Shown here piece after piece: positions 1,330-12,448 of a DNA stretch of 55,872 bases. Each line of letters begins with the position of its first letter. Within the stretch, counting starts at the first letter, position 1. Position numbers and translations under genes: made by a program. The notes beneath the pieces were generated by a model that saw only the letters and a program-made list of their open reading frames with translations, made no database searches and was not told the origin of the DNA. Source of the DNA: Candidatus Woesebacteria bacterium RIFCSPHIGHO2_01_FULL_39_32 (GTDB lineage Bacteria > Patescibacteriota > Microgenomatia > UBA8517); NCBI GenBank assembly GCA_001792345.1, contig MGGJ01000001.1, positions 358,688-414,559 of the forward strand. The letters run 5' to 3'.

Positions 1330-1473
1330 ATGGAGGAAGAAGCGGAAAATCAAAAAAATTCACAAACTTATTATAAAAAAAGGCCTTTATGGCAGTGGAT
1401 TTTAATTTATTTAGGCGTCGGAGGTGTTATTTACGGACTGATTTATTATTTCAAGCAAAACAAAACTTATTAA
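1330..1473 (+). CDS. Small single-pass membrane protein (47 aa, below the ORF-track cutoff)
   Basis: Hand translation gives MEEEAENQKNSQTYYKKRPLWQWILIYLGVGGVIYGLIYYFKQNKTY. It has an acidic/basic N-terminus followed by one TM helix. Its stop overlaps the stop of the convergent gene at 1470. Confidence 0.35.
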   Translation: MEEEAENQKNSQTYYKKRPLWQWILIYLGVGGVIYGLIYYFKQNKTY

Positions 1474-2276
1474 TCCTTTGCCCAGATTACGAATGTAAAA
1501 AGTTTATTTGATGCTCCAAGATCCCGCTCGAAAAGAGCAACATAACCGTTATTCCTAATTTCTTTACCCCATTCACTTCTATTTTCAAAATCAGAGTTTT
1601 TTGCCGATTCTGCTACCAATAAACCGAAGGGTAAATTTTGAGAACTGCTTTTAACAGAAGTGAGGGTATCAAGATGGGAATAAATTGTTTCCAGCTGTTC
1701 ATAATCGTGACTGTTAGGATGCTCGTTACTAGGCGGACCATCAGGATCCGAGGTGTAATCCATACAGGTACCGAGATTGGTGTTACCATAGTTCTCGTCC
1801 TGATGATCAAGTCCCAATGTGTGACCAGCTTCCTGACACATAACCAAATTCTTCCACGCTGATGTATTGTATTTAGCTAAGTTAAAATACGTATCATTAA
1901 CCTTTGTGACACCCTGAGTAATATGATTTCCGCTCGCCCAAATTTGTGCCAATCCAAGCCAACCGTTATTTCCATATTTGCTATTACATACTTCTACCCG
2001 TCCGCTACTGGCTCTACAGTTTCTAGGGTTTGTTCCGCCGGAAACGATAGTCGTATCGAGAACCGAAGAAACACTCCAGTCAGAGGATGTTGTTGCAAGA
2101 TACGGATCCCAGCTTGAGGATAAGTTATCACCCAACTTCAGCGTAAATGGGTTACTTGTACGTGCCCAATGATAATTTCCCCATGAATGACTTGCACGAA
2201 CTTCTGAAGAAAACGAAAATAAAAATAAAGCGATTCCAAAAAGTGATAAAAGAAGGCGCATCTTTGTAATATGCAT
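1470..2276 (-). CDS. Secreted metzincin-like protein with variant zinc motif QEAGHTLGLDH
   Basis: N-terminal signal peptide MRLLLSLFGIALFLFSFSSEVRA. The motif QEAGHTLGLDH fits HExxHxxGxxH except that Gln replaces the first His. Confidence 0.55.
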   Translation of the reverse strand: MHITKMRLLLSLFGIALFLFSFSSEVRASHSWGNYHWARTSNPFTLKLGDNLSSSWDPYLATTSSDWSVSSVLDTTIVSGGTNPRNCRASSGRVEVCNSKYGNNGWLGLAQIWASGNHITQGVTKVNDTYFNLAKYNTSAWKNLVMCQEAGHTLGLDHQDENYGNTNLGTCMDYTSDPDGPPSNEHPNSHDYEQLETIYSHLDTLTSVKSSSQNLPFGLLVAESAKNSDFENRSEWGKEIRNNGYVALFERDLGASNKLFTFVIWAKD

Positions 2277-2345
2277 TACAAACTTATATTAACAAAAATT
2301 TAATTATTTTGTCAAATACCGACATATATTAGAACTACAAATTAT

Positions 2346-3521
2346 TTAAAGTTCGCAGGAAGAAGTAGTTTCCCCGCCGATACAAGTATCTGTACCTGAG
2401 TTTCCCCGGAGATTATCAAGATCTAATCCGCCGTCGAGAAGATCGTCTCCAGAATTTCCTCTAATTTTGTCATCACCTGCCTCCCCATAAAGCTTATCGT
2501 TTCCGGATCCTCCCCTTATTTCGTCATTCTCGCTTCCGCCGTAAATTTCATCATCACCATCTCCGCCGTCGATATCGTCCTCGCCCTCATTTCCATATGC
2601 TAAATCGTTTCCGGATCCTACATCTATATCGTCGTTTCCAGTTCCTCCCCAAACTTTGTCATTTCCGGAACCACTCCTTATGCGATCGTTACCATTTCCA
2701 CCCAAATCAACGTCGTCTCCGGATCCAGAATAGATCCTGTCATTGCCTTCACCACCAACCACACAATCATGCCCGCCATTGGAATCTATTCTGTCATTGC
2801 CTCCCTTAGCTAATATAAACTCGTTTGCAATCGTGCCGTTGATGTTATCATTACCCTCAGTTCCCTCGATCACACTGGTAATTACTCCACTTAAGTGTTG
2901 ACACTCTGGAGGGAGTTCTATTCCAGGTGCGTCTGTTTGCCAGATTATATTGAAGATAACTCTCGCTTCTTGATATTCATTTCCCGCGCTCGACGGAAAC
3001 TTCACTTTAACTCTATAGCTTTTGTCTGCTCCAGCAGGGAAGTTTCCAAGATTAAATAGGGGAGCGTCAAAAAGAGCCTGAAGTTTACCGCTGAAGATTA
3101 AAGTTGAAGTAAGTTCGGTAACTTCTACGTCTAAAATACCTGCAAAAGCCTTGTATTCATCGGTTTTGACAAAATCCATCGTAACTGACTCATCCTCGCC
3201 TGAGTCATTTTTAACATTAAAGTCCTTTTGCTTTTCATCTCCCGGAAGCATATTTGTCACAACAAACATCGGTGGATTAGGTGGTGGTCCTTCTGGAGTA
3301 TAAGTTACTATAAGAGGATCAACAGCATATGTTTCTACACCTCTGGAGTTGTGTTGGCTATAAACAAAATAAAACCCATAAAAAACAAAGGGTAAAAGTA
3401 AAAATAACAAAAACCTCTTTTTGGTGAATTCTACAGCTCTATGTTGAAATGTAGAAAATAATACCTGTTCGGAGGATTTCTTGAAACTATTTATATAATA
3501 TTTTTTAATTAAGTTTTTCAT
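2346..3521 (-). CDS. Membrane-anchored TasA/camelysin-like domain protein fused to about 14 RTX (GGxGxD) calcium-binding repeats
   Basis: N-terminal TM helix FLLFLLLPFVFYGFYFVY. The middle domain has MLPGDEKQKDFNVKN ... SAGNEYQEARVIFNIIWQ (compare B. subtilis TasA LKPGDKLTKDFQFEN ... NKYQGNSIKLQFSFEATQ). The C-terminus carries GGNDRI / GEGNDRI / GSGDD / GNGNDRI ... nonapeptide repeats. Confidence 0.75.
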   Translation of the reverse strand: MKNLIKKYYINSFKKSSEQVLFSTFQHRAVEFTKKRFLLFLLLPFVFYGFYFVYSQHNSRGVETYAVDPLIVTYTPEGPPPNPPMFVVTNMLPGDEKQKDFNVKNDSGEDESVTMDFVKTDEYKAFAGILDVEVTELTSTLIFSGKLQALFDAPLFNLGNFPAGADKSYRVKVKFPSSAGNEYQEARVIFNIIWQTDAPGIELPPECQHLSGVITSVIEGTEGNDNINGTIANEFILAKGGNDRIDSNGGHDCVVGGEGNDRIYSGSGDDVDLGGNGNDRIRSGSGNDKVWGGTGNDDIDVGSGNDLAYGNEGEDDIDGGDGDDEIYGGSENDEIRGGSGNDKLYGEAGDDKIRGNSGDDLLDGGLDLDNLRGNSGTDTCIGGETTSSCEL

Positions 3522-3523
3522 AT

Positions 3524-4936
3524 TTAAGGAGGGCTATTCGCTGATTTTGGTGTTCCTCTATTTTCTATATCCTCGCCTGAGTCAAAACCTACAGATGTAT
3601 TGGCTGTATGCCAACTTCCTGAAATAGTTCCGTCACCCGGCGTACTATTTCTTTCCATGGAGTAAAACTTCTTTGGTTGGCTTACTTTATGATTACCAGC
3701 AAGAGGAGTACTCTTGTTCCCCGCGGTATCAATAAGTGTTCCACCAGTATCCCAATTACTCACAAATAGTCTTATTTGTAAAGCGGTGTTGCTTAGAGTA
3801 ACACTTGTTGATATCTCATCGGGAGTGACATTAAGAGCACTTCCGGGATCGCCGCTGGGAAACTGAGCGATAAGGAAAAATCCTCCCGGGGGTATAGATT
3901 TTCCGGCTGAAATAGTAAACATCAATTCTTCATGATCCGTTCCGGAAGTTACCCATTTTGTCAATTGCCATCCGCTAATATCTATTGTGTTGGATGTTGT
4001 GTTTCGAAGCTCTATCCACTCGTCAGAAGCACCCTTCGTACTTCCCATCCACATTAATTCGTTTATCACAACATCTCCAGGTTGAGGTCCTTGAGGTGCT
4101 TGCGACCATTCTCCGGCTTGGAAAAGATTTCCGATTGAGTTTTCGATATCAGAAAAAAATGAGGCAGTAAGTCCGAGGAAAACTATACTTGCTCCGAAAA
4201 TAGGAAGCAGAACAGAAACTTTTGGTATCCCTTTATCTTTATCTTTAAAGTTCTCTCCCTGCGAGGCAGTATACTCCGGTTCTATTTTTAATTTCCTTCT
4301 TTTAAATCTAGATTTAATTTTCGAAAAACCACTTTTCAGAAGTGTTCTTATTTCATTTAGAAGTGATTTTAGTTCTTCGTAGATAATTATCGTTGCGGGA
4401 ACAATTACCAAAAGCAGAAAACCGTATGGGGTTTTTGCGTAATTTGCTAAATACCCTAGGTAGGGGATATTGAGAATATTTTTCCCGAGAATGTATTCGT
4501 CCTTTATTTCCCAAGTATCAAAGTCCTCATTCGCATCACCGCCTGTAATATATCTGGCAGGGGAATCAGCTCCATCCGGATATAATTTAAATACAATTCT
4601 GTGGGTTATTAGCTTTTTGGAATCACCGTTGGGAGCAAAAGTTATCACATCCCCCTGAACATAATTTTCTGAGGGATATGAAACAACAACACTGCCAGTT
4701 TTAATCGCCGGTTCCATTGAACCCGATTGAACAATATAAAGTTTAGGAATCCTTGAAGCAAATCCCCGATAATTAAAGCTAATCATTCTCGGAGGTTGAA
4801 TACGTTGCAATATCGGGATTTTAGATATACTGTGTGAGGTTAAAAGAAGAACAGTAATAGTAAGGCCAAAAGAAAAACTAGCAATCCCTAGAATTACTAT
4901 TTTCAAAATGCTCCAAAGTTTCTTAGACTTATTCAT
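3524..4936 (-). CDS. ER/archaeal-type (SipW/Sec11-like) signal peptidase I fused to an internal SipW-class signal peptide and a lamin-tail domain
   Basis: Peptidase motifs SGSMEP, ITHRIV and GGDAN. The order is TM, basic linker, third TM, then SFFSDIENSIGNLFQAGEW, then the LTD motif VVINELMW..DEWIELRN..ISGWQL. Start is ATG at 4936; an alternative GTG lies at 4972. Confidence 0.8.
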   Translation of the reverse strand: MNKSKKLWSILKIVILGIASFSFGLTITVLLLTSHSISKIPILQRIQPPRMISFNYRGFASRIPKLYIVQSGSMEPAIKTGSVVVSYPSENYVQGDVITFAPNGDSKKLITHRIVFKLYPDGADSPARYITGGDANEDFDTWEIKDEYILGKNILNIPYLGYLANYAKTPYGFLLLVIVPATIIIYEELKSLLNEIRTLLKSGFSKIKSRFKRRKLKIEPEYTASQGENFKDKDKGIPKVSVLLPIFGASIVFLGLTASFFSDIENSIGNLFQAGEWSQAPQGPQPGDVVINELMWMGSTKGASDEWIELRNTTSNTIDISGWQLTKWVTSGTDHEELMFTISAGKSIPPGGFFLIAQFPSGDPGSALNVTPDEISTSVTLSNTALQIRLFVSNWDTGGTLIDTAGNKSTPLAGNHKVSQPKKFYSMERNSTPGDGTISGSWHTANTSVGFDSGEDIENRGTPKSANSPP

Positions 4937-5054
4937 CTCAGACCACTGCAGTCCTGAAAACCAAAACTGCACTAGACTGATCTTTAACCCTTCGTTTTGC
5001 GGTCAGGGTTCTAACCTCCGATAGCGGTCGGTTAGAGGGCTAAAGAAAAGTCTT

Positions 5055-6500
5055 TTAAGGAAATGGCTGGGTACCGCAAAACGTTTGGACTCCGTCCAAA
5101 TCATATGCGTCTGCCGTACTCTCAAATAAACTCTTATCGCTGACATCGGTTATCCTCAGTTGCGATGCCCAAGCCAATCCTGAAGTACCTAGATCCAAAA
5201 ATGCGTCTCGAGTAGCGCTCGCCGTAACTAGGAAAAAGTTAACTCCGTCCTGACTTGCTTCAACTTTTATTTTCTCATCAGGATATGTTCCTCCTGTTAC
5301 CTCAAACACCCTAAAATCAAAACCTGCCAAATCAACAATTGGGTTAGCAAAGCTCAGCACTATACTTCCTCCGCCAACATTACCGGCTCCAAATCCTAAG
5401 CTGAAAAATGAACCGAAAACAACAGGTGTATCCGAAGGCGTTCCGGTACTTTGCGGCGCGCCGAGTGCGTCAGTAGGATCGCTTCTGTCGGCTAAAACTG
5501 CAGTTCCGTTTTTACGCAATCCTTGAGCAGACGATGCTACACCAGTTGCATATCCAGGAATACATACTACTCCAGTAGGGGTTGGTGTTAGTGTTACTTC
5601 AGGCGGATTACATAGAAAACCACCATTGTGTCTTGATTGAACTGCTCTAAAACTTATATCGGCAGTCATGCTATCGGTTTGTGTTTGGTTATCTTCTCCG
5701 GATCCATCACAGTCAAACCCTGCGCCTCTCACATCCGGTCCATTAGAATCGAGTTGTCCGGGAGTACCTACTTGACCAAGATTATCTTGCACAACTGGGT
5801 TCGGAGTGGCGAGAGTTCCAAAACACCAAGCCTTGCCGATGTATTTAGTCTGCCCACCGGGGAATGGAGACGGTACCGGATCCCAAATGTTATTTTGGGA
5901 ATCAGCTAAGGCAACTGTAGCTGTTTCTCCAACTTCGAGATTTCCCAAAGGTCCTGCCGGCAAAAGGGTTTCATTTTGACAGGCCACCTCTGGTGCTGGA
6001 CCGCCGCCGGCCTGTTCACATATTTCAAATACGTTATCGCCATCATCATCCCACCATATAAAGTTGACACGCTCCGCAAGTTCACCGGCTCCAGCACCTC
6101 CACTAGAATTATCGCCGTCCAGTGCTTCAGGATTTGTTAAAACGTTTTCGTCATCACTGGTTAAAGTTACGTCAACACAAATCCAAGAGTCGTTCTCAAC
6201 GTGGAGGCTAATAGTATCTTCTCCAAAGTCTCCAGGTTTCAGATCTAGAAAGTTGAAGAATAGGTATTGACCCTGCGCGGGTCCATTTCCATCGTCGAGA
6301 TCGGCCAATTGAAGCCAACTTGTTCCGGGATTATAAACACCGTTATAGTAGCTACTGTTATCTATTTTCAGGTCCAGCTCACCTGCTTGGAAAATGTTAT
6401 CTTTCGATGTTTCTGTATCGGAGAAGAATGCATTGGTTACTCCCAATGTAATCAATCCGACAGCACTTAAAACTAATATACTTTTTAATATTTTTTTAAT
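5055..6500 (-). CDS. Large TasA-superfamily secreted protein with SipW-class signal peptide (paralog A); apparent ATT start
   Basis: Contains NAFFSDTETSKDNIFQAGELDLKIDN, DLKPGDFGEDTISLHV and WCFG. The tracked ORF starts at TTG 6455, inside the signal peptide. Extending to ATT at 6498-6500 gives MKKILKSILVLSAVGLITLGVTNAFFSD, with a GGGGTGA Shine-Dalgarno 6 nt upstream. Confidence 0.7.
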   Translation of the reverse strand: MKKILKSILVLSAVGLITLGVTNAFFSDTETSKDNIFQAGELDLKIDNSSYYNGVYNPGTSWLQLADLDDGNGPAQGQYLFFNFLDLKPGDFGEDTISLHVENDSWICVDVTLTSDDENVLTNPEALDGDNSSGGAGAGELAERVNFIWWDDDGDNVFEICEQAGGGPAPEVACQNETLLPAGPLGNLEVGETATVALADSQNNIWDPVPSPFPGGQTKYIGKAWCFGTLATPNPVVQDNLGQVGTPGQLDSNGPDVRGAGFDCDGSGEDNQTQTDSMTADISFRAVQSRHNGGFLCNPPEVTLTPTPTGVVCIPGYATGVASSAQGLRKNGTAVLADRSDPTDALGAPQSTGTPSDTPVVFGSFFSLGFGAGNVGGGSIVLSFANPIVDLAGFDFRVFEVTGGTYPDEKIKVEASQDGVNFFLVTASATRDAFLDLGTSGLAWASQLRITDVSDKSLFESTADAYDLDGVQTFCGTQPFP

Positions 6501-6583
6501 ATCTATTCACCCCGATTCTAAGCCAAAAGGCATTCTCAAAATCCTTATCCCGTTAGATGTTCCGCTGGAACTATCTAACTGGG

Positions 6584-6634
6584 AAGTGCTTTTTAGTGCT
6601 TGCAAAGACTAATGCTCTGCAAGCACTAGCACTT
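6584..6634. other. Long nested hairpin between the two large TasA-like paralogs
   Basis: AAGTGCT(tttt)AGTGCTTGCA, a 13-nt loop, then TGCAAGCACT-AGCACTT. That is 17 bp with one 4-nt bulge and no U-tract on the coding (minus) strand. Confidence 0.5.
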
Positions 6635-6701
6635 TTATTCAAATTCTGAATCCCTTCAGTCTGTTTAACCTCAACATACATGCGCTAAGGTTCAAAACAG
6701 C

Positions 6702-7835
6702 CTAGTTAGGGGCGCAGAGTGCGAAAACCGTTATGCTCTCGCCATCGTTATCATTCTGTACGACCCACCCTGTTTCAGGGGGTATGTAGGTATAGTGGGG
6801 ATAGACGGGATACAAAGGTTCCCCCGCCTTTGCTGGGCCTGAGAATTGCACAGTGGCTGTGCCAGGTTCGTATCCTCCTCCAACCACGTGTGTGTCTACT
6901 GGGCAAGACCATCCGCCCCATCCATTTGGACCAAAAGCTAACTCAGGCGATTCGACGCGAACCACCCACTCGGGTAACCAGGTATCGCAAGAAAAGTCAG
7001 GATTATTTCGTGACTGTTCGGCATAGAACTCCAGATCTCCAACTACACTGTCAGTTTGAGCCGCATTATCCACACTTGCGCCACTACAACTAAATCCTGT
7101 TCCTGCGTTAAGTGGACTTCTGGTTTCATCTTGAGGTCCGCTTGCGGGATCTACTGGAGTTTGGTTCACATCACCAAAACACCAATACTTTCCTATATAG
7201 AAAGTTGTTCCACCAGGAATCGGATTAGTTGCACCCAGAATACTACTTTGAGAATCGGCTAGCGTAATTTGACCTTGTTCATCAATTCCACTAATTGGTC
7301 CGCTTAAGAATGGAGTAGGTTCGCCAATTTCAAATACATTATCTCCATCATCAACCCAGAAAGCGAAATTGACTTCTTCGTCAAGTTCTCCGTCACCGCC
7401 AGGATCTTGACATGTTGGATCATCGGCATTTTCGGGATCCGTACAGGAATTATCCTGATCTTCAGTGATTTGCGCTGCTGCACACATCCAAGCGTCGTTA
7501 CTGCCGACGTGAACAGAGATTGTATCTTCTCCATAATCTCCCGGTTTAAGGTCGACAAAATCGAAGAACTTCTCAACTGTCAAATCTCTCAATTCCCAAG
7601 AAGTGTGTGTGCTTGCAACAAAGGCACCAGTTGGTTGAGGATATCCTGGAATGTTCCAGTCGATTGCATAGCTTTCATTATCGATCTGAAGATCAATGTC
7701 TCCTGCAACGAAAGTGTTACCAAGAGATGTTTCAGAGTCGGAGAAGAAAGCATTGGATACTGCAATTGCGACAATAGCAACAACGCCGATTGTAAACAAG
7801 CTTCCGAATATCCTTCTTAAATTAGTTTTTTTCAA
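6702..7835 (-). CDS. Large TasA-superfamily secreted protein with SipW-class signal peptide (paralog B)
   Basis: Starts MKKTNLRRIFGSLFTIGVVAIVAIAVSNAFFSDSETSLGNTFVAGDIDLQIDN, with DLKPGDYGEDTISVHV and YIGKYWCFG. It aligns with paralog A over about 270 aa. TTG start with a GGGGGTGA SD 6 nt upstream. Confidence 0.8.
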   Translation of the reverse strand: MKKTNLRRIFGSLFTIGVVAIVAIAVSNAFFSDSETSLGNTFVAGDIDLQIDNESYAIDWNIPGYPQPTGAFVASTHTSWELRDLTVEKFFDFVDLKPGDYGEDTISVHVGSNDAWMCAAAQITEDQDNSCTDPENADDPTCQDPGGDGELDEEVNFAFWVDDGDNVFEIGEPTPFLSGPISGIDEQGQITLADSQSSILGATNPIPGGTTFYIGKYWCFGDVNQTPVDPASGPQDETRSPLNAGTGFSCSGASVDNAAQTDSVVGDLEFYAEQSRNNPDFSCDTWLPEWVVRVESPELAFGPNGWGGWSCPVDTHVVGGGYEPGTATVQFSGPAKAGEPLYPVYPHYTYIPPETGWVVQNDNDGESITVFALCAPN

Positions 7836-7930
7836 ATATTCTCACCCCCTCTCCGGGCAATTTACCCTTTAATTGCCTCGGTGAGATGTCAAAGACTACC
7901 TCACCGGGACTATAAAAAGTAAACTTATGT

Positions 7931-8758
7931 TTACCTGCTGTCTTTACCAGTATTTACATACTGAATACACAGCCCTTGGTTGCTGAAACCATAAGCTTCC
8001 CAGCCACCATCTTTACAATCGTCTTTGGTAACAGGATTGAGGACCACTTCGTATTTCTCAGAATTATCAATTGCTAAGAAACCGAAATCGCTCGTCACAA
8101 ACCAACCATAACGATTGCCTCCAACCGTAGTACCAATAACATCAGTTGGATCAGACAACGTCCATGTATGTAAAACTGTTTCAGTACCATCCAATACATC
8201 CATGACTACTTCCAGTACTCCACTTCCGTCATCTTGGAAAGTGTGACGAAATGTGTACCAACCACTGGTGTCTACAAAGAACGGATCTCTCCCCGGATTT
8301 GATGGCCAGCCCGGAGCATTATTGCTAGCACTCATGGCAAATTGCCCTGTAACTAGTGGGTCTGTACCAACGCTAAAGATAAAGTCTCTTCTGTGTGAAC
8401 CCGCAGGATCATTTATCGCAGAAGAAAAATCAAATCTTTTATCAGTTGCAAGTACAGTATTCTCAGACATATCAAGGTAGATATCGACTTGAGTTACATA
8501 ACCGTTAGTAGGGAAAGCGCTTTCATATCCACCCCAACGTGTAAATGCTCCTGCATCAACTTCCGCGTGGAAATCTCCATCGGCAGAAGTTACACCGTTA
8601 CTTCCACTGGCAACTCTAACTATGTTTGTCCCGTCGGTAAACCAACCATCTGTGTCGACCTCAAAGCCGTTAAAAAAATTAGCGACTGCCAACGCGGAAC
8701 CAGTAGCTAGAAGCAAAGCAAAAGTGGAAACTATTACTGATTTTAATATTTTTTTCAT
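7931..8758 (-). CDS. Secreted protein of unknown function (beta-rich, lectin-like; C-terminal CKDGGWEAYGFSNQGLC motif)
   Basis: Signal peptide MKKILKSVIVSTFALLLATGSALA. GGAGGTGA SD lies 7 nt before the ATG. I recognise no catalytic motif. Confidence 0.6.
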   Translation of the reverse strand: MKKILKSVIVSTFALLLATGSALAVANFFNGFEVDTDGWFTDGTNIVRVASGSNGVTSADGDFHAEVDAGAFTRWGGYESAFPTNGYVTQVDIYLDMSENTVLATDKRFDFSSAINDPAGSHRRDFIFSVGTDPLVTGQFAMSASNNAPGWPSNPGRDPFFVDTSGWYTFRHTFQDDGSGVLEVVMDVLDGTETVLHTWTLSDPTDVIGTTVGGNRYGWFVTSDFGFLAIDNSEKYEVVLNPVTKDDCKDGGWEAYGFSNQGLCIQYVNTGKDSR

Positions 8759-9325: not shown

Positions 9326-9997
9326 ATGATCAAGAGAATATTTATCTCGGCTCTCTTTTTGCTCGTGATATCTTCTTATAATAATATTTTTGCTGCCGAT
9401 AAGAATGTTGTCTGTAATAATTCCGGCTGCAGCGGTTTTTCCGGTAGTCTTTTTTCTGAATCCGGAATGCTCCCTGGTGATACTTTATCGAAAACTTTCA
9501 GCGTTAAAAACGAAAGAAATGAGCCTATTTCCTTAACTTTGGAATCGGAAGAAAATGCCGGCACCGATGAAATCTTCAAGCAAAAAATTGTCGCAGTAGT
9601 TTATGAAAATGGGGGTTTAATAAAATTCAGCGGCACTTTTGAAAACTTTTTAGTTTCAGATATAGCTCTCGGCAATTTAAGCCCAAATGAGACCAAAAAT
9701 TATGAGATTTCAATAAGTTTTCCGACAGATGCAGGAAATGAATATCAGGGTAAAGTTATAAACTTTGATTTAAGTATCACAATTACAGGTGATGATGGAA
9801 GCACAGAAGTTTTATCGAGTTCAACATCAAATACCAACTCGTCTTCAAATAATTCTTCTCGGCCAGGAAGCATTCTTGGAACAATTTTGGGATTATCAGA
9901 TACAGGTGGGGTTAAGTTAGTTCTGATTTTTGGTGGAATTGGAATTTTATTAACTTCAATCGGATTAAAACTTATACACTCTAATCGGCGTGGTTAA
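9326..9997 (+). CDS. TasA/camelysin-like secreted protein with C-terminal LPXTG-like sorting signal (LSDTG + TM + RRG)
   Basis: It has a signal peptide, then MLPGDTLSKTFSVKNERNE ... DAGNEYQGKVINFDLSITI, paralogous to the middle domain of 2346-3521. A Ser/Asn-rich linker follows, then GLSDTGGVKLVLIFGGIGILLTSIGLKLIHSNRRG. Confidence 0.7.
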   Translation: MIKRIFISALFLLVISSYNNIFAADKNVVCNNSGCSGFSGSLFSESGMLPGDTLSKTFSVKNERNEPISLTLESEENAGTDEIFKQKIVAVVYENGGLIKFSGTFENFLVSDIALGNLSPNETKNYEISISFPTDAGNEYQGKVINFDLSITITGDDGSTEVLSSSTSNTNSSSNNSSRPGSILGTILGLSDTGGVKLVLIFGGIGILLTSIGLKLIHSNRRG

Positions 9998-10055
9998 ACG
10001 CACAAGAGGTTTATTGTTTTAACTATTGTTTTGGAATTATAATCAATCTAACCTC

Positions 10056-11720
10056 ATGGCAAAAATTATGCTTCTAAATGGTAAAAAATATCCTTTTGTT
10101 AACGAACCAAGCTTAAAAAAGGCCGCTTTAAAATATAAAAATATTTTTAGCATAAAAAAAGAAGGAAATAATATAATTTCGATAGAAAATATAAAACCGT
10201 TTTATTGGAAAAAGTGGAGTATCAAAAAAGATCAAACGGTTAAAGATGGCGCAGGCGAACCTATTTATGATTTCGATATTATCTTTAAGGATATTGTTTT
10301 GGAAAAACTTGATACTAAACTAAATCCCAGAAAAAATACAACCGACGCCTCTATTAATCCTAATAAAAAAGAAATTTATACCTATTTATCTAGTAAATCA
10401 ATTTACATCACAAATTCAGAAATACGTTCTAGTTTTAATTTAAATGATTGTATTCTTATTTTTAATTTAGTTCTTGATAAAACAATTTTCAAAAAAGATT
10501 TCTCCGTAAATAATACAAAGTTTTACAGTAGACTTTACATAAGAAATGCAACTTTCAAAGATAAAGTTATTTTTAATAAGTGTTTATTTGAATGCGGTTT
10601 AACATTTAAAGGCTCTTTATTAAAAAATAATTTTAATATTTTAAATTCAGAGATAGTTGAAACCGATAAAGTAGATAAAATCGATGTTGATTTTAGTAAC
10701 ACATTATTTGAAAAAGATTTAATTCTAAAAAATATTTTTAATACATGGGGAAGATATGCATTCAAAGAAGCCATTATCAAAGGTGATGCATATTTTTCAA
10801 ATATCAATAATCTTAGCTTTTTAGATCTTCGCCTTTCTAACTTTGAAAAACAGTTATTTTTGGAACTTGGAAGTGTCGGTCAATATAAATATTTAACGCT
10901 AGCTCTTTACCAGTCTGATATAAATCATCTTCTTTGTGATCATGTACAGATTAAAAATGTAAAGGTAAAATCCGAAAGTTATTCAAAAACCTATATCGCC
11001 AGGTTTTATGGTATTAAAAAACCGAAAACCGTAAGTTTTATCAGAAAAGAATTAAATTTAAAAACTATAAAAAGATTAGGGCTAAAAGCATTATTTTTTG
11101 GAACACATGGCAGGAATTACCATATGAAGGATGAAAAAGGTTTATTAAGAGAAAAATTAATTATTATTCAAACTATTAGAGATATGCTGCCGATTTATAT
11201 TCATGAGATTCGATTACTTAGAAAAATTTTTAGTGAGTTAAATATCCGTGAAGCAGATGATGTTTATTTTGCAAAATTAATGAACGCGCAGCTGGAATTT
11301 GATAGATATTGCTATGAATATAAATCCTTTTCCAAAAGGTTTTCTTACTGGCTCAGAAGAATTGTGTTTAAGAATGTATTTGGTTGGGGAGTACACTTGC
11401 AAAATGTAATTTATTATTCTGCATTGGTAATACTTTTTTTTGCTCTAATCTTTCACAATTTTTTACCGAACGCGGTATTTGCAACGGTGGATGAAGTAAA
11501 TGGAGTAATAAGTAATGAGCTTGTGAGGATGATTAATTATTCTTTCTGGGACAAGATTTTTATATCCTTTCAAGGATTTTTTGGAATTCTACTTCCGGAT
11601 TTTTCAATTAAAATCATAAGTGCTCCCCTTAATATTTTAATTACTTTAGAGTCCGTCATCGGGCTTATTTTTGTAACGGTGATGGTTGCTGTTCTTTCTA
11701 GGAAGTTCATGAGAATGTAG
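10056..11720 (+). CDS. Beta-helix (pentapeptide-like) repeat protein with C-terminal 2-TM pore-loop channel-like domain
   Basis: Degenerate 5-residue periodicity appears in aa about 130-290 (for example NATFKDKVIFNKCLFECGLTFKGSLLKNNFNILNSEI). The C-terminus reads YYSALVILFFALIF ... SFWDKIFISFQGFFGILLPD ... LITLESVIGLIFVTVMVAVL. This resembles a K-channel pore module but lacks the TVGYG filter. The gene is very AT-rich. The tracked ORF starts at TTG 10026. Confidence 0.5.
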   Translation: MAKIMLLNGKKYPFVNEPSLKKAALKYKNIFSIKKEGNNIISIENIKPFYWKKWSIKKDQTVKDGAGEPIYDFDIIFKDIVLEKLDTKLNPRKNTTDASINPNKKEIYTYLSSKSIYITNSEIRSSFNLNDCILIFNLVLDKTIFKKDFSVNNTKFYSRLYIRNATFKDKVIFNKCLFECGLTFKGSLLKNNFNILNSEIVETDKVDKIDVDFSNTLFEKDLILKNIFNTWGRYAFKEAIIKGDAYFSNINNLSFLDLRLSNFEKQLFLELGSVGQYKYLTLALYQSDINHLLCDHVQIKNVKVKSESYSKTYIARFYGIKKPKTVSFIRKELNLKTIKRLGLKALFFGTHGRNYHMKDEKGLLREKLIIIQTIRDMLPIYIHEIRLLRKIFSELNIREADDVYFAKLMNAQLEFDRYCYEYKSFSKRFSYWLRRIVFKNVFGWGVHLQNVIYYSALVILFFALIFHNFLPNAVFATVDEVNGVISNELVRMINYSFWDKIFISFQGFFGILLPDFSIKIISAPLNILITLESVIGLIFVTVMVAVLSRKFMRM

Positions 11721-11767
11721 CTGCTTGACTAAACCCCAACCTATAACGATAATATCGGCAATAACTT

Positions 11768-12448
11768 ATGCAATATAGAACTGTCGATTACCTTAGAGAT
11801 AGTTATTGGTTTATAGAAATGCCCATTAATTTGTGGGAATTTCTAAAGCCCAGACTGAAAAAGTTTTTAGATAAGGCAATTGATTTTGAGTACGACAAAT
11901 ATATATTTCGTATTGCAGAAAATCTCCCTTACGCTTTGGTTATTTTATTTTTGGGACTTTTTGCTGTCCTAACTTTGGCTAAATACAGCGAAAAACAAAA
12001 CGGTATCCGAGTAACAACTATCACTACTAATTCCATGTATCCTGCAATTGCGCCCGGAAGCATAATTATTTCTACACCTACTTCGATTTACTCAAAGGGA
12101 GATATTATAACTTACAAAGAAATTAATCCAAAAACAGGCGTTGAAACAGGGCGGGCTATTACTCATAGGATAATTTCGGAAGGCGAGTCAGACAAGGATG
12201 TTATTTATGTGACACAAGGAGATGCAAATAAGCAGCCGGATCCTGGCAATATCAAAAAGGAACAAATTTTCGGAAAAGTATTTATGATTGTCCCTTTTCT
12301 CGGGTACTTTGACATCGTCGTTAAGACTCTTCCCGGATTTACTATTTTTATAGTAATTCCCGCACTACTACTTATCAGAAATGAATTAAATTTTCTCAAA
12401 GAGGAGAAAAGATACAGCCTAAAGAAGAGTGACTTCGTTGGTTTGTAA
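11768..12448 (+). CDS. ER/archaeal-type (SipW/Sec11-like) signal peptidase I, stand-alone
   Basis: Motifs TNSMYPAI (Ser), ITHRII (His) and QGDAN. One N-terminal TM helix follows a roughly 55-aa cytoplasmic extension, and there is a C-terminal TM helix. Confidence 0.8.
   Translation: MQYRTVDYLRDSYWFIEMPINLWEFLKPRLKKFLDKAIDFEYDKYIFRIAENLPYALVILFLGLFAVLTLAKYSEKQNGIRVTTITTNSMYPAIAPGSIIISTPTSIYSKGDIITYKEINPKTGVETGRAITHRIISEGESDKDVIYVTQGDANKQPDPGNIKKEQIFGKVFMIVPFLGYFDIVVKTLPGFTIFIVIPALLLIRNELNFLKEEKRYSLKKSDFVGL

Follow-up and report, generated by a model that had tools for sequence, protein, structure and literature searches.

Signal peptidases are known for removing N-terminal signal peptides from other proteins. 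The locus examined here raises the question of what such an enzyme does when it appears to carry a substrate within its own polypeptide chain. In a stretch of 55,872 nucleotides from Candidatus Woesebacteria bacterium RIFCSPHIGHO2_01_FULL_39_32, an ultra-small groundwater bacterium (contig MGGJ01000001.1, positions 358,688 to 414,559; hereafter the window), a reverse-strand gene, designated sipW::LTD, joins a Sec11/SipW-type signal peptidase to a predicted internal signal peptide and a lamin-tail domain (LTD), and lies in an operon with genes for TasA-like proteins. The public database name for such fused proteins is only "signal peptidase I". The best explanation, which we consider probable, is that an ancient in-frame fusion joined sipW to a downstream gene for a signal peptide and LTD, and that cleavage of the product would release a TapA-like initiator or tip of a TasA-type fibre.

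An intact fusion of a SipW-type peptidase and a lamin-tail domain

The gene occupies a single open reading frame (ORF) of 482 codons at positions 3524 to 4972 of the reverse strand. An in-frame GTG at 4972 would give a product of 482 aa, and the ATG at 4936 gives one of 470 aa, to which all residue numbers refer. The initial annotation of the window had described a complete SipW-type peptidase between two transmembrane (TM) helices, continuing through a basic linker into a third TM helix, a cleavage-region motif and an LTD, and each of these elements was recovered in our analysis (Table 1). The order along the chain is TM1, peptidase, TM2, K/R-rich linker, TM3, TAS/FFSDIENSIGNLFQAGEW (a slash marks the predicted cleavage site here and below) and the lamin-tail immunoglobulin-like (Ig) domain. 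Hydropathy identified three hydrophobic segments, at about residues 13-31, 172-190 and 240-258 (the last being VSVLLPIFGASIVFLGLTA), and the helices of an AlphaFold2 (AF2) model with a mean predicted local distance difference test (pLDDT) score of 84.6 coincide with them. S259 followed by F260-FSDIENSIGNLFQAGEW makes up the motif region (residues 259-277); the range given for the motif initially, 4106-4222, proved to cover TM3 (4160-4219) as well as the motif itself (4106-4159).

The peptidase domain scores 77.3 bits against the NCBIfam model TIGR02228 for archaeal-type signal peptidase I, passing the cut-off of 51.85, and contains the SGSMEP, THR and GDAN motifs. Across an alignment of 70 homologues, S71-G-S73-M-x-P, H112-R, G-D134-x-N and D140 are invariant, and S73, H112, D134 and D140 align as the Ser/His/Asp/Asp set of Sec11-type enzymes. 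A search of the PDB with the family profile returned human SEC11C (E=7e-16) and SEC11A (E=2e-14; range reported, 1e-14 to 1e-16), and Foldseek matched the N-terminal domain of the AF2 model to SEC11 (7p2q) with probability 1.00. The equivalog model for Bacillus SipW, NF046067, was not reached (87.5 bits vs a cut-off of 190), which places the domain by its profile scores as SipW-like rather than as a SipW equivalog. With its catalytic residues kept, the fused peptidase looks like an active enzyme. The C-terminal domain scores 53.1 bits against Pfam PF00932 (cut-off 34.3), is complete and confidently predicted (pLDDT >90), and matches the Ig folds of lamins A/C and B1 (1ifr, 3umn and others) with a Foldseek probability of 1.00.

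No stop codon or frameshift separates two genes at this locus: the 470-aa protein is identical in two further public groundwater assemblies, with 2 synonymous DNA differences over 1413 nt. The continuous fused frame is kept in >100 homologues drawn from NCBI, JGI, ENA and Logan, one of which is 66% identical while about a hundred others show 35-55% identity. Sequence comparison confirms that the fusion is a real, conserved and intact ORF and, as far as such comparison goes, excludes the frameshift or missed stop that had been raised as a concern.

Predicted topology of the fusion and its internal signal peptide

To orient the hydrophobic segments we used the established positive-inside rule. 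Residues 196-241, covering most of the linker between TM2 and TM3, contain 14 K/R and 5 D/E, whereas the 39 residues after TM3 contain 0 K/R and 5 D/E. The same asymmetry holds among the fused homologues, in which the linker carries a net positive charge (88/88) and the net charge of the 30 aa following the predicted site is zero or negative (88/88). These charges argue strongly for a topology with the N-terminus inside, the catalytic domain outside, the linker between TM2 and TM3 inside, and the motif and LTD outside. In this arrangement the active site and TAS/FFSD are therefore on the same outer side of the membrane, and not on opposite sides, an outcome that the initial annotation had left open. 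A Met close to the beginning of TM3 is present in only 13 of the 88 fused homologues, so the C-terminal part appears to have no start codon of its own and not to be made separately.

The internal motif had been proposed to be the one carried by the two neighbouring TasA-like proteins. The N-termini of both neighbours match TIGR04088, the curated model of SipW-cognate signal peptides (25.7 and 26.3 bits), but that model is blind to the internal segment of the fusion; we therefore trained a family-specific hidden Markov model (HMM) on 48 homologous internal sites, that of the window protein not among them, and tested it against the neighbours by searching all 319 stop-to-stop ORFs of the window. 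Besides the fusion, it matched only the N-termini of the two TasA-like ORFs (5058-6506(-), E=1.8e-11; 6705-7841(-), E=1.9e-10), the next best ORF having E=0.009. This confirms, at the level of sequence, that the likeness between the internal motif and the signal-peptide motif of the neighbours is far above chance.

Residue counts in HMM columns for 103 internal sites and 119 N-terminal sites of the TasA-like family agree at +1 (F/Y), +2 (F), +13 (F/L) and +15 (A), and also at +4 (D, 97% vs 100%), +6 (E, 91% vs 100%), +8 (S, 86% vs 100%) and +11 (N, 96% vs 100%). Position +16 is A/G/S at internal sites and an invariant G at N-terminal sites, and a conserved G-L-P-K just ahead of TM3 is not seen in the TasA-like N-terminal signal peptides. 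Upstream of the predicted site, 98% of the internal sites have S, T or A at -3 and 97% have S, A or G at -1, with a variable residue at -2, a pattern that follows the classical signal-peptidase rule. The scissile bond is accordingly predicted after Ser259 (Ser259/Phe260), with Thr257 at -3 and Ser259 at -1.

The motif lies outside the LTD fold and is disordered in the AF2 model, as it is in the TasA-like neighbour. Since the pLDDT of the motif (residues 263-280) is <50, as is that of the linker (217-236), while that of the LTD is >90, the motif is best viewed as a flexible extension rather than as a strand of the LTD. In TasA, the mature chain starts immediately behind the SipW site and its 11 N-terminal residues form the donor strand of the fibre (PMC9674648), and the conserved motif of the fusion probably corresponds, by its sequence and position, to that strand.

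Split orthologues and the age of the fusion

A comparison of split and fused orthologues, as the initial annotation had suggested, recovered both states. We scanned one genome per GTDB species, which yielded 60 loci, and searched the six-frame ORFs of these loci with profiles of the peptidase, the motif and the LTD; 58 of the loci carry titles of candidate phyla radiation (CPR) lineages or of "uncultured" placeholder taxa, the exceptions being Bacillota and Syntrophomonadaceae records. The full fusion is present at 17 loci, from Woese-, Chisholm- and Amesbacteria and unnamed Patescibacteria. At 19 loci the parts are split: a peptidase of ~185-240 aa is followed directly by an LTD ORF in a different frame, often with an overlap of a few bases. 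Those split loci that are named belong to Berkel-, Moran- and Beckwithbacteria and the Parcubacteria group, the others having only Patescibacteria-group or placeholder titles. In 9 of the 19 split LTD ORFs the motif HMM detected an N-terminal signal of the form M-K/R...hydrophobic...TGA/YFSDxxxVSGNxF, so that the signal motif is internal in the fusion (residues 240-259) and N-terminal in split orthologues. Read-through under an alternative genetic code was considered as a cause of the split state and ruled out, the split genes being in different frames.

The split pairs align colinearly with both halves of the fusion, in agreement with the initial reading of the gene as an enzyme joined to its substrate. 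Fusion residues 65-230 align with the split peptidase at 41-46% identity; over residues 233-391 the match is to the first 164 residues of the downstream protein, with 27-31% identity. TM3 falls on the h-region of the signal peptide, TAS/FFSD on TGS/YFSD, and the linker on the peptidase tail together with the signal n-region. These alignments show the C-terminal half of the fusion to be orthologous to standalone SipW-type preproteins, and the linker appears to combine the C-terminal tail of SipW with what was once the n-region of a signal peptide. Because both of these segments are cytoplasmic, the genes could be joined without a change of topology.

A recent fusion, one of the options put forward initially, is not borne out by these comparisons. 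In a rough neighbour-joining tree of the peptidase domain the fused forms make up one clade and the split forms are basal, and the fused homologues show 35-66% identity. This fits one old fusion event defining a Microgenomates clade.

Conserved strand and variable cargo

What follows the predicted site varies widely among fused homologues, from 21 to 434 residues (median 197). At 14 loci, and in many additional database proteins, the peptidase, TM3 and motif occur without the LTD, and some such proteins end 19-50 aa after the site with the strand alone left; at L030 the protein stops 19 residues after the site and a gene like that at 2346-3521 comes directly next. In two homologues (P0085 and P0105) a Cys-rich domain of ~400 aa with no Pfam match replaces the LTD. 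We also noted Pro/Thr-rich tails and a bare strand of ~20 residues among the variants (P0085, P0105, P0107; L030, L025, L027). Given this variable cargo, the invariant element is the unit of TM3, site and strand. At two further loci (L003, 918-2304; L024, 9854-11057) a separate, overlapping ORF encodes the LTD beyond the motif, which could be a frameshift, an incipient pseudogene or an assembly error.

The operon and its TasA-like proteins

Homologues of the 6702-7835 protein are 60-70% identical to it and many carry PF12389 (camelysin/TasA). The top three Foldseek matches of its AF2 model are TasA (5of1), the TasA fibre (8aur) and AbpA (7ueg), and searching PDB chains with the sequence of the TasA-like neighbour returned a chance match only. 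The 5055-6500 protein is a paralogue of this family (hhalign 100%), and PF12389 reaches 22.9 bits (cut-off 22.5) on its 5055-6455 portion, at the N-terminus only. On these profile and model matches, both neighbours are classed as TasA-family proteins.

The third TasA-like gene, at 2346-3521, starts 3 nt past the stop codon of the fusion. A family profile of 70 sequences from fetched loci matches the TasA-like profile with 95% probability (E=2.8e-8); single-sequence hhalign comparisons of 2346-3521 and of the secreted protein at 9326-9997 with that profile gave no match. The profile match begins only at ...AGxLxI..., so the FFSD strand is lacking from this protein. In split loci the N-terminus of this type of gene looks like an ordinary AxA signal peptide. 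The order of the operon recurs in fused and split loci: two or three tasA-like genes, sipW::LTD (or sipW and then LTD), and the donor-less TasA-like gene.

A second, unfused SipW-type peptidase is encoded divergently from the operon, with its Ser/His/Asp residues intact. This paralogue is in the same relative position at four other loci (L001, L002, L004 and L012) and its family forms a separate clade. At most fused loci there is no second peptidase within 10 kb.

A model for processing and fibre assembly

Under the preferred reading, two adjacent genes of a TasA-type fibre operon, one for a Sec11/SipW-type peptidase and the next for a small secreted protein, would have been fused in frame in the distant past, the second partner contributing a signal peptide of the SipW class, an N-terminal donor strand like that of TasA and a lamin-tail Ig domain. 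The Ser259-Phe260 bond is predicted to be cut, and the enzyme responsible could be the same molecule, a second copy of it or the unfused paralogue. The cut would leave a three-TM peptidase that retains the former signal peptide as its last helix and would release an LTD protein of ~211 aa with the donor strand FFSDIENSIGN as its new N-terminus. Since the motif appears to be a TasA donor strand, the released part is better viewed as a TapA-like initiator than as a generic secreted LTD protein. By analogy with TasA fibres, the proteins at 6702-7835 and 5055-6500 would form the polymer. More speculatively, the released donor-only protein might insert its strand into the first of these subunits and so nucleate or tip the fibre, and the donor-less, TM-anchored 2346-3521 protein might accept the last strand and anchor or terminate it. 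Through the fusion, each new peptidase might also come with one initiator, at the site where subunits are processed.

Several observations weigh against this model. Fusion residues 225-286 give no TIGR04088 match even with E-values up to 10 allowed. Position -1 is occupied by Ala in 96% of N-terminal sites but by Ser in 49% of the internal ones, and TM3 contains a conserved Pro (90%) and Gly (86%; ...LLPIFGA...) that are missing from the ordinary signal peptides of the operon; together these suggest a retained role for TM3 and a site that is perhaps cut slowly or never. That the internal site is cleaved at all we infer from its residues, and insertion of a donor strand by the LTD protein and an acceptor-only role for 2346-3521 are drawn by analogy. 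The TM-scores to target of the TasA-fold matches of 6702-7835 are modest, at only 0.31-0.41. In addition, the AF2 model of the fusion has a predicted TM-score (pTM) of 0.48 and low interdomain confidence, and docking of TM3 on the enzyme cannot be read from it.

The main rival, which we regard as unlikely, holds that the fusion is never cut, that TM3 is permanent, and that the strand, with or without an LTD, stays tethered, making the peptidase itself the anchor or nucleation site of the fibre. The unusual composition of TM3, the shift from Ala to Ser at -1 and the failure of TIGR04088 to detect the segment all agree with such a tether, and in variants with 19-50 aa past the site a tethered strand would be as useful as a free peptide. 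Nevertheless, small residues at -3 and -1 in 97-98% of the 103 sites, around a varying -2, would have no evident reason without cleavage, and a strand that begins right at the membrane surface would have little space for insertion into a subunit. The same segment is, moreover, an N-terminal signal peptide in the standalone orthologues, and the catalytic residues are invariant.

A stricter version of the cleavage model makes the fusion an obligate self-processing, one-shot device, in which each peptidase, once inserted, would cut itself in cis and free a single donor-strand primer (with an LTD tip or without one) where the TasA-like subunits are to emerge, and the third helix would then tune or gate later substrates. 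We are doubtful of this version; if it were true, fibre number would be set by peptidase synthesis. To our knowledge, stoichiometric coupling of an enzyme to an initiator is not known for any signal peptidase.

It is also possible, though in our judgement improbable, that the LTD protein is set free but plays no part in fibres, with the FFSD...GN stretch serving only for peptidase recognition and the LTD acting as an adhesin or as a binder of nucleic acid or polysaccharide. The LTD is linked to the TasA-like subunits by indirect evidence only, LTDs occur in many unrelated secreted bacterial proteins (matches combining LTD and dockerin were among our homologue search results), and the cargo varies, as in the two proteins with a Cys-rich domain. 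However, it is rare for signal peptidases to constrain 16 residues beyond the cut, and the constrained stretch is the donor strand in TasA and sufficient alone in TapA. The strand is also kept in LTD-less variants, and synteny with the TasA-like and donor-less TasA-like genes is strict in both fused and split loci.

Inhibition of the enzyme by its own internal site, either as a pseudo-substrate or through a once-cut TM3 that plugs the groove and so regulates processing of the TasA-like proteins, seems to us very unlikely. The cleaved "signal peptide" could not leave, being covalently part of the enzyme, the Pro and Gly of TM3 would fit a specific intramolecular contact, and the unfused paralogue conserved nearby could do the bulk of the processing. 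Set against these points, structural support is absent from the AF2 model, in which interdomain confidence is low, and the lack of a second peptidase within 10 kb at most fused loci implies that the fused enzyme is probably the working one.

Finally, a missed stop, frameshift or chimeric assembly joining two genes can be dismissed on sequence comparison: although split versions exist in other lineages, and the separate overlapping LTD ORFs at L003 and L024 indicate that local frameshifts do occur, the identical protein in two other assemblies and the fused homologues from four sources speak against it, and misreading of a single stop codon cannot produce the fusion since the split genes are in different frames.

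Relation to known systems

The closest parallel is the tapA-sipW-tasA operon of Bacillus subtilis, which likewise encodes a dedicated Sec11-type peptidase with TasA-family subunits and an accessory Ig-like protein whose N-terminal strand is homologous to the donor strand of the major subunit. TapA has a complete Ig fold with such a strand and initiates the fibre; its residues 44-57 alone are needed, and tapA and sipW overlap at stop and start (PMC10151520). In both systems the accessory and peptidase genes are physically coupled and the post-cleavage motif is common (TIGR04088 and the N-terminus of PF12389). Unlike in B. subtilis, the peptidase and the accessory protein described here share a single chain in which the peptidase comes first, and the signal peptide lies within that chain and would remain with the enzyme. 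The Ig domain is of the lamin-tail type rather than a TapA fold, the host is a CPR bacterium, and the operon has in addition a TasA-like protein that is TM-anchored, lacks the donor strand and carries RTX repeats. The LTD part has a TapA-like layout, in that the LTD is complete, the disordered motif lies outside its fold and matches the motif of the neighbours, and the context is of the sipW/tasA type; the likeness to TapA is one of putative function and layout, and membership of the TapA family is not claimed. The LTD-less variants, with a strand of roughly 20 residues, parallel the sufficiency of the 14-residue TapA peptide in Bacillus.

Seven split pairs from Berkel-, Parcu- and Moranbacteria (L036, L044, L046, L047, L052, L055 and L057) have orthologous parts in the same order and operon context, and differ in having two genes in different frames and a normal N-terminal signal peptide; they too are unannotated and uncharacterised. 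The eukaryotic/archaeal signal peptidase catalytic subunit SEC11 (PDB 7p2p, 7p2q) shares the fold and the Ser-His(-Asp) active site and is the best profile and fold match to the fusion, but it belongs to a multi-subunit complex and has one TM helix where the fusion has three. We know of no case in which SEC11 is fused to a substrate. SipA, the non-catalytic SipA/LepA-type homologue of Streptococcus pyogenes, serves sortase-built pili. It was among our fold matches (PDB 4n31) and represents a signal-peptidase fold used for surface-fibre assembly, whereas the catalytic residues are invariant and the fibre would be TasA-type in the fusion system. SipA is described as a signal-peptidase homologue essential for pilus polymerisation (title of PDB 4n31). 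In Pyrobaculum calidifontis, AbpA, the third fold match of 6702-7835, is a TasA-fold subunit that uses donor-strand exchange, with AbpB proposed to act as a TapA-like initiator (PMC9245690); that operon is without a dedicated peptidase or fusion. TasA homologues in Patescibacteria were noted in the same study, with the fusion unmentioned (PMC9245690).

Our literature searches returned no account of the fusion, nor of a SipW-type site in an internal position. The system is of the known SipW/TasA kind, and what is new is the covalent arrangement of enzyme and substrate, the internal and retained signal peptide, and a CPR operon with three roles. As Rosetta-stone evidence, the fusion indicates the proteins that SipW-type peptidases handle in uncultivated CPR bacteria, and it would imply an unusual reaction, namely cleavage at an internal signal peptide that stays part of the enzyme. 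The putative donor-only, donor-plus-acceptor and acceptor-only proteins amount to a complete set of parts, open to testing, for a TasA-type fibre built by donor-strand exchange in Microgenomates.

Feature coordinates and other observations in the window

Table 1. Coordinates of the sipW::LTD fusion, its segments and associated genes in the window.
Feature	Positions	Strand	Residues	Evidence and remarks
Fused gene sipW::LTD	3524..4936	(-)	1-470	470 aa from ATG 4936; stop 3524-3526
N-terminus		(-)	1-6	MNKSKK, Lys-rich
TM1	4844..4900	(-)	~13-31	N-in signal anchor after MNKSKK; hydropathy and charge; AF2 helix 2-39
Sec11/SipW-type (S26B) catalytic domain	4433..4750	(-)	~63-168	TIGR02228, invariant residues, PDB profile, Foldseek
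Predicted catalytic residues	4718-4720; 4601-4603; 4535-4537; 4517-4519	(-)	Ser73; His112; Asp134; Asp140	Alignment
TM2	4367..4423	(-)	~172-190	Out-to-in; includes conserved PATIIIYEE; hydropathy, alignment, AF2 helix
Cytoplasmic basic linker	4220..4366	(-)	191-239	K/R-rich; AF2-disordered
TM3, predicted internal signal-peptide h/c-region	4160..4219	(-)	240-259	VSVLLPIFGASIVFLGLTAS; hydropathy, HMM sites, alignment
SipW-cognate, TasA donor-strand-like motif	4106..4159	(-)	260-277	FFSDIENSIGNLFQAGEW; predicted N-terminus of released product
Short Pro/Gly-rich spacer		(-)	~278-283	Between motif and LTD
Lamin-tail (Ig-like) domain	3554..4087	(-)	~284-461	PF00932, AF2, Foldseek
TasA/camelysin-like subunit 1	6702..7835	(-)		Signal ...AIAVSNA/FFSDSETSLGNTFVAG; TIGR04088, AF2 and Foldseek
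TasA/camelysin-like subunit 2	5055..6500	(-)		Signal ...LGVTNA/FFSDTETSKDNIFQAG; TIGR04088, PF12389, hhalign
Donor-less TasA-like gene	2346..3521	(-)		N-terminal TM, TasA-like jelly-roll, C-terminal RTX Ca-binding repeats (7)
Unfused SipW-type peptidase paralogue	11768..12448	(+)		226 aa; TIGR02228 90.4 bits; divergent from operon

The ORF listing shortens the second TasA-like gene to 5055-6455. Upstream of its signal peptide there is no ATG, GTG or TTG; the frame opens after the TGA at 6507-6509 and reads I-D-I-K-K-I-L-K-S. An ATT at 6498-6500, 6-7 nt downstream of GGGGTGA, is probably the start codon; it is aligned with the Met that begins the homologues (consensus MxKILLS).

The 1470-2276(-) gene encodes a secreted protein of 268 aa with no Pfam or NCBIfam match, in which QEAGHTLGLDH resembles a metzincin/snapalysin zinc site with Gln replacing the first His. 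The G+C content is 41-44% in the fibre operon (2000-8000) vs 28% in the adjacent region of a pentapeptide-repeat membrane protein (10000-12000). The secreted protein encoded at 9326-9997(+) has 223 aa, of which residues ~42-149 match the same regions of other loci as does the N-domain of 2346-3521, and its C-terminus (...LGLSDTGG, a hydrophobic stretch and SNRRG) resembles an LPXTG-type sortase sorting signal.

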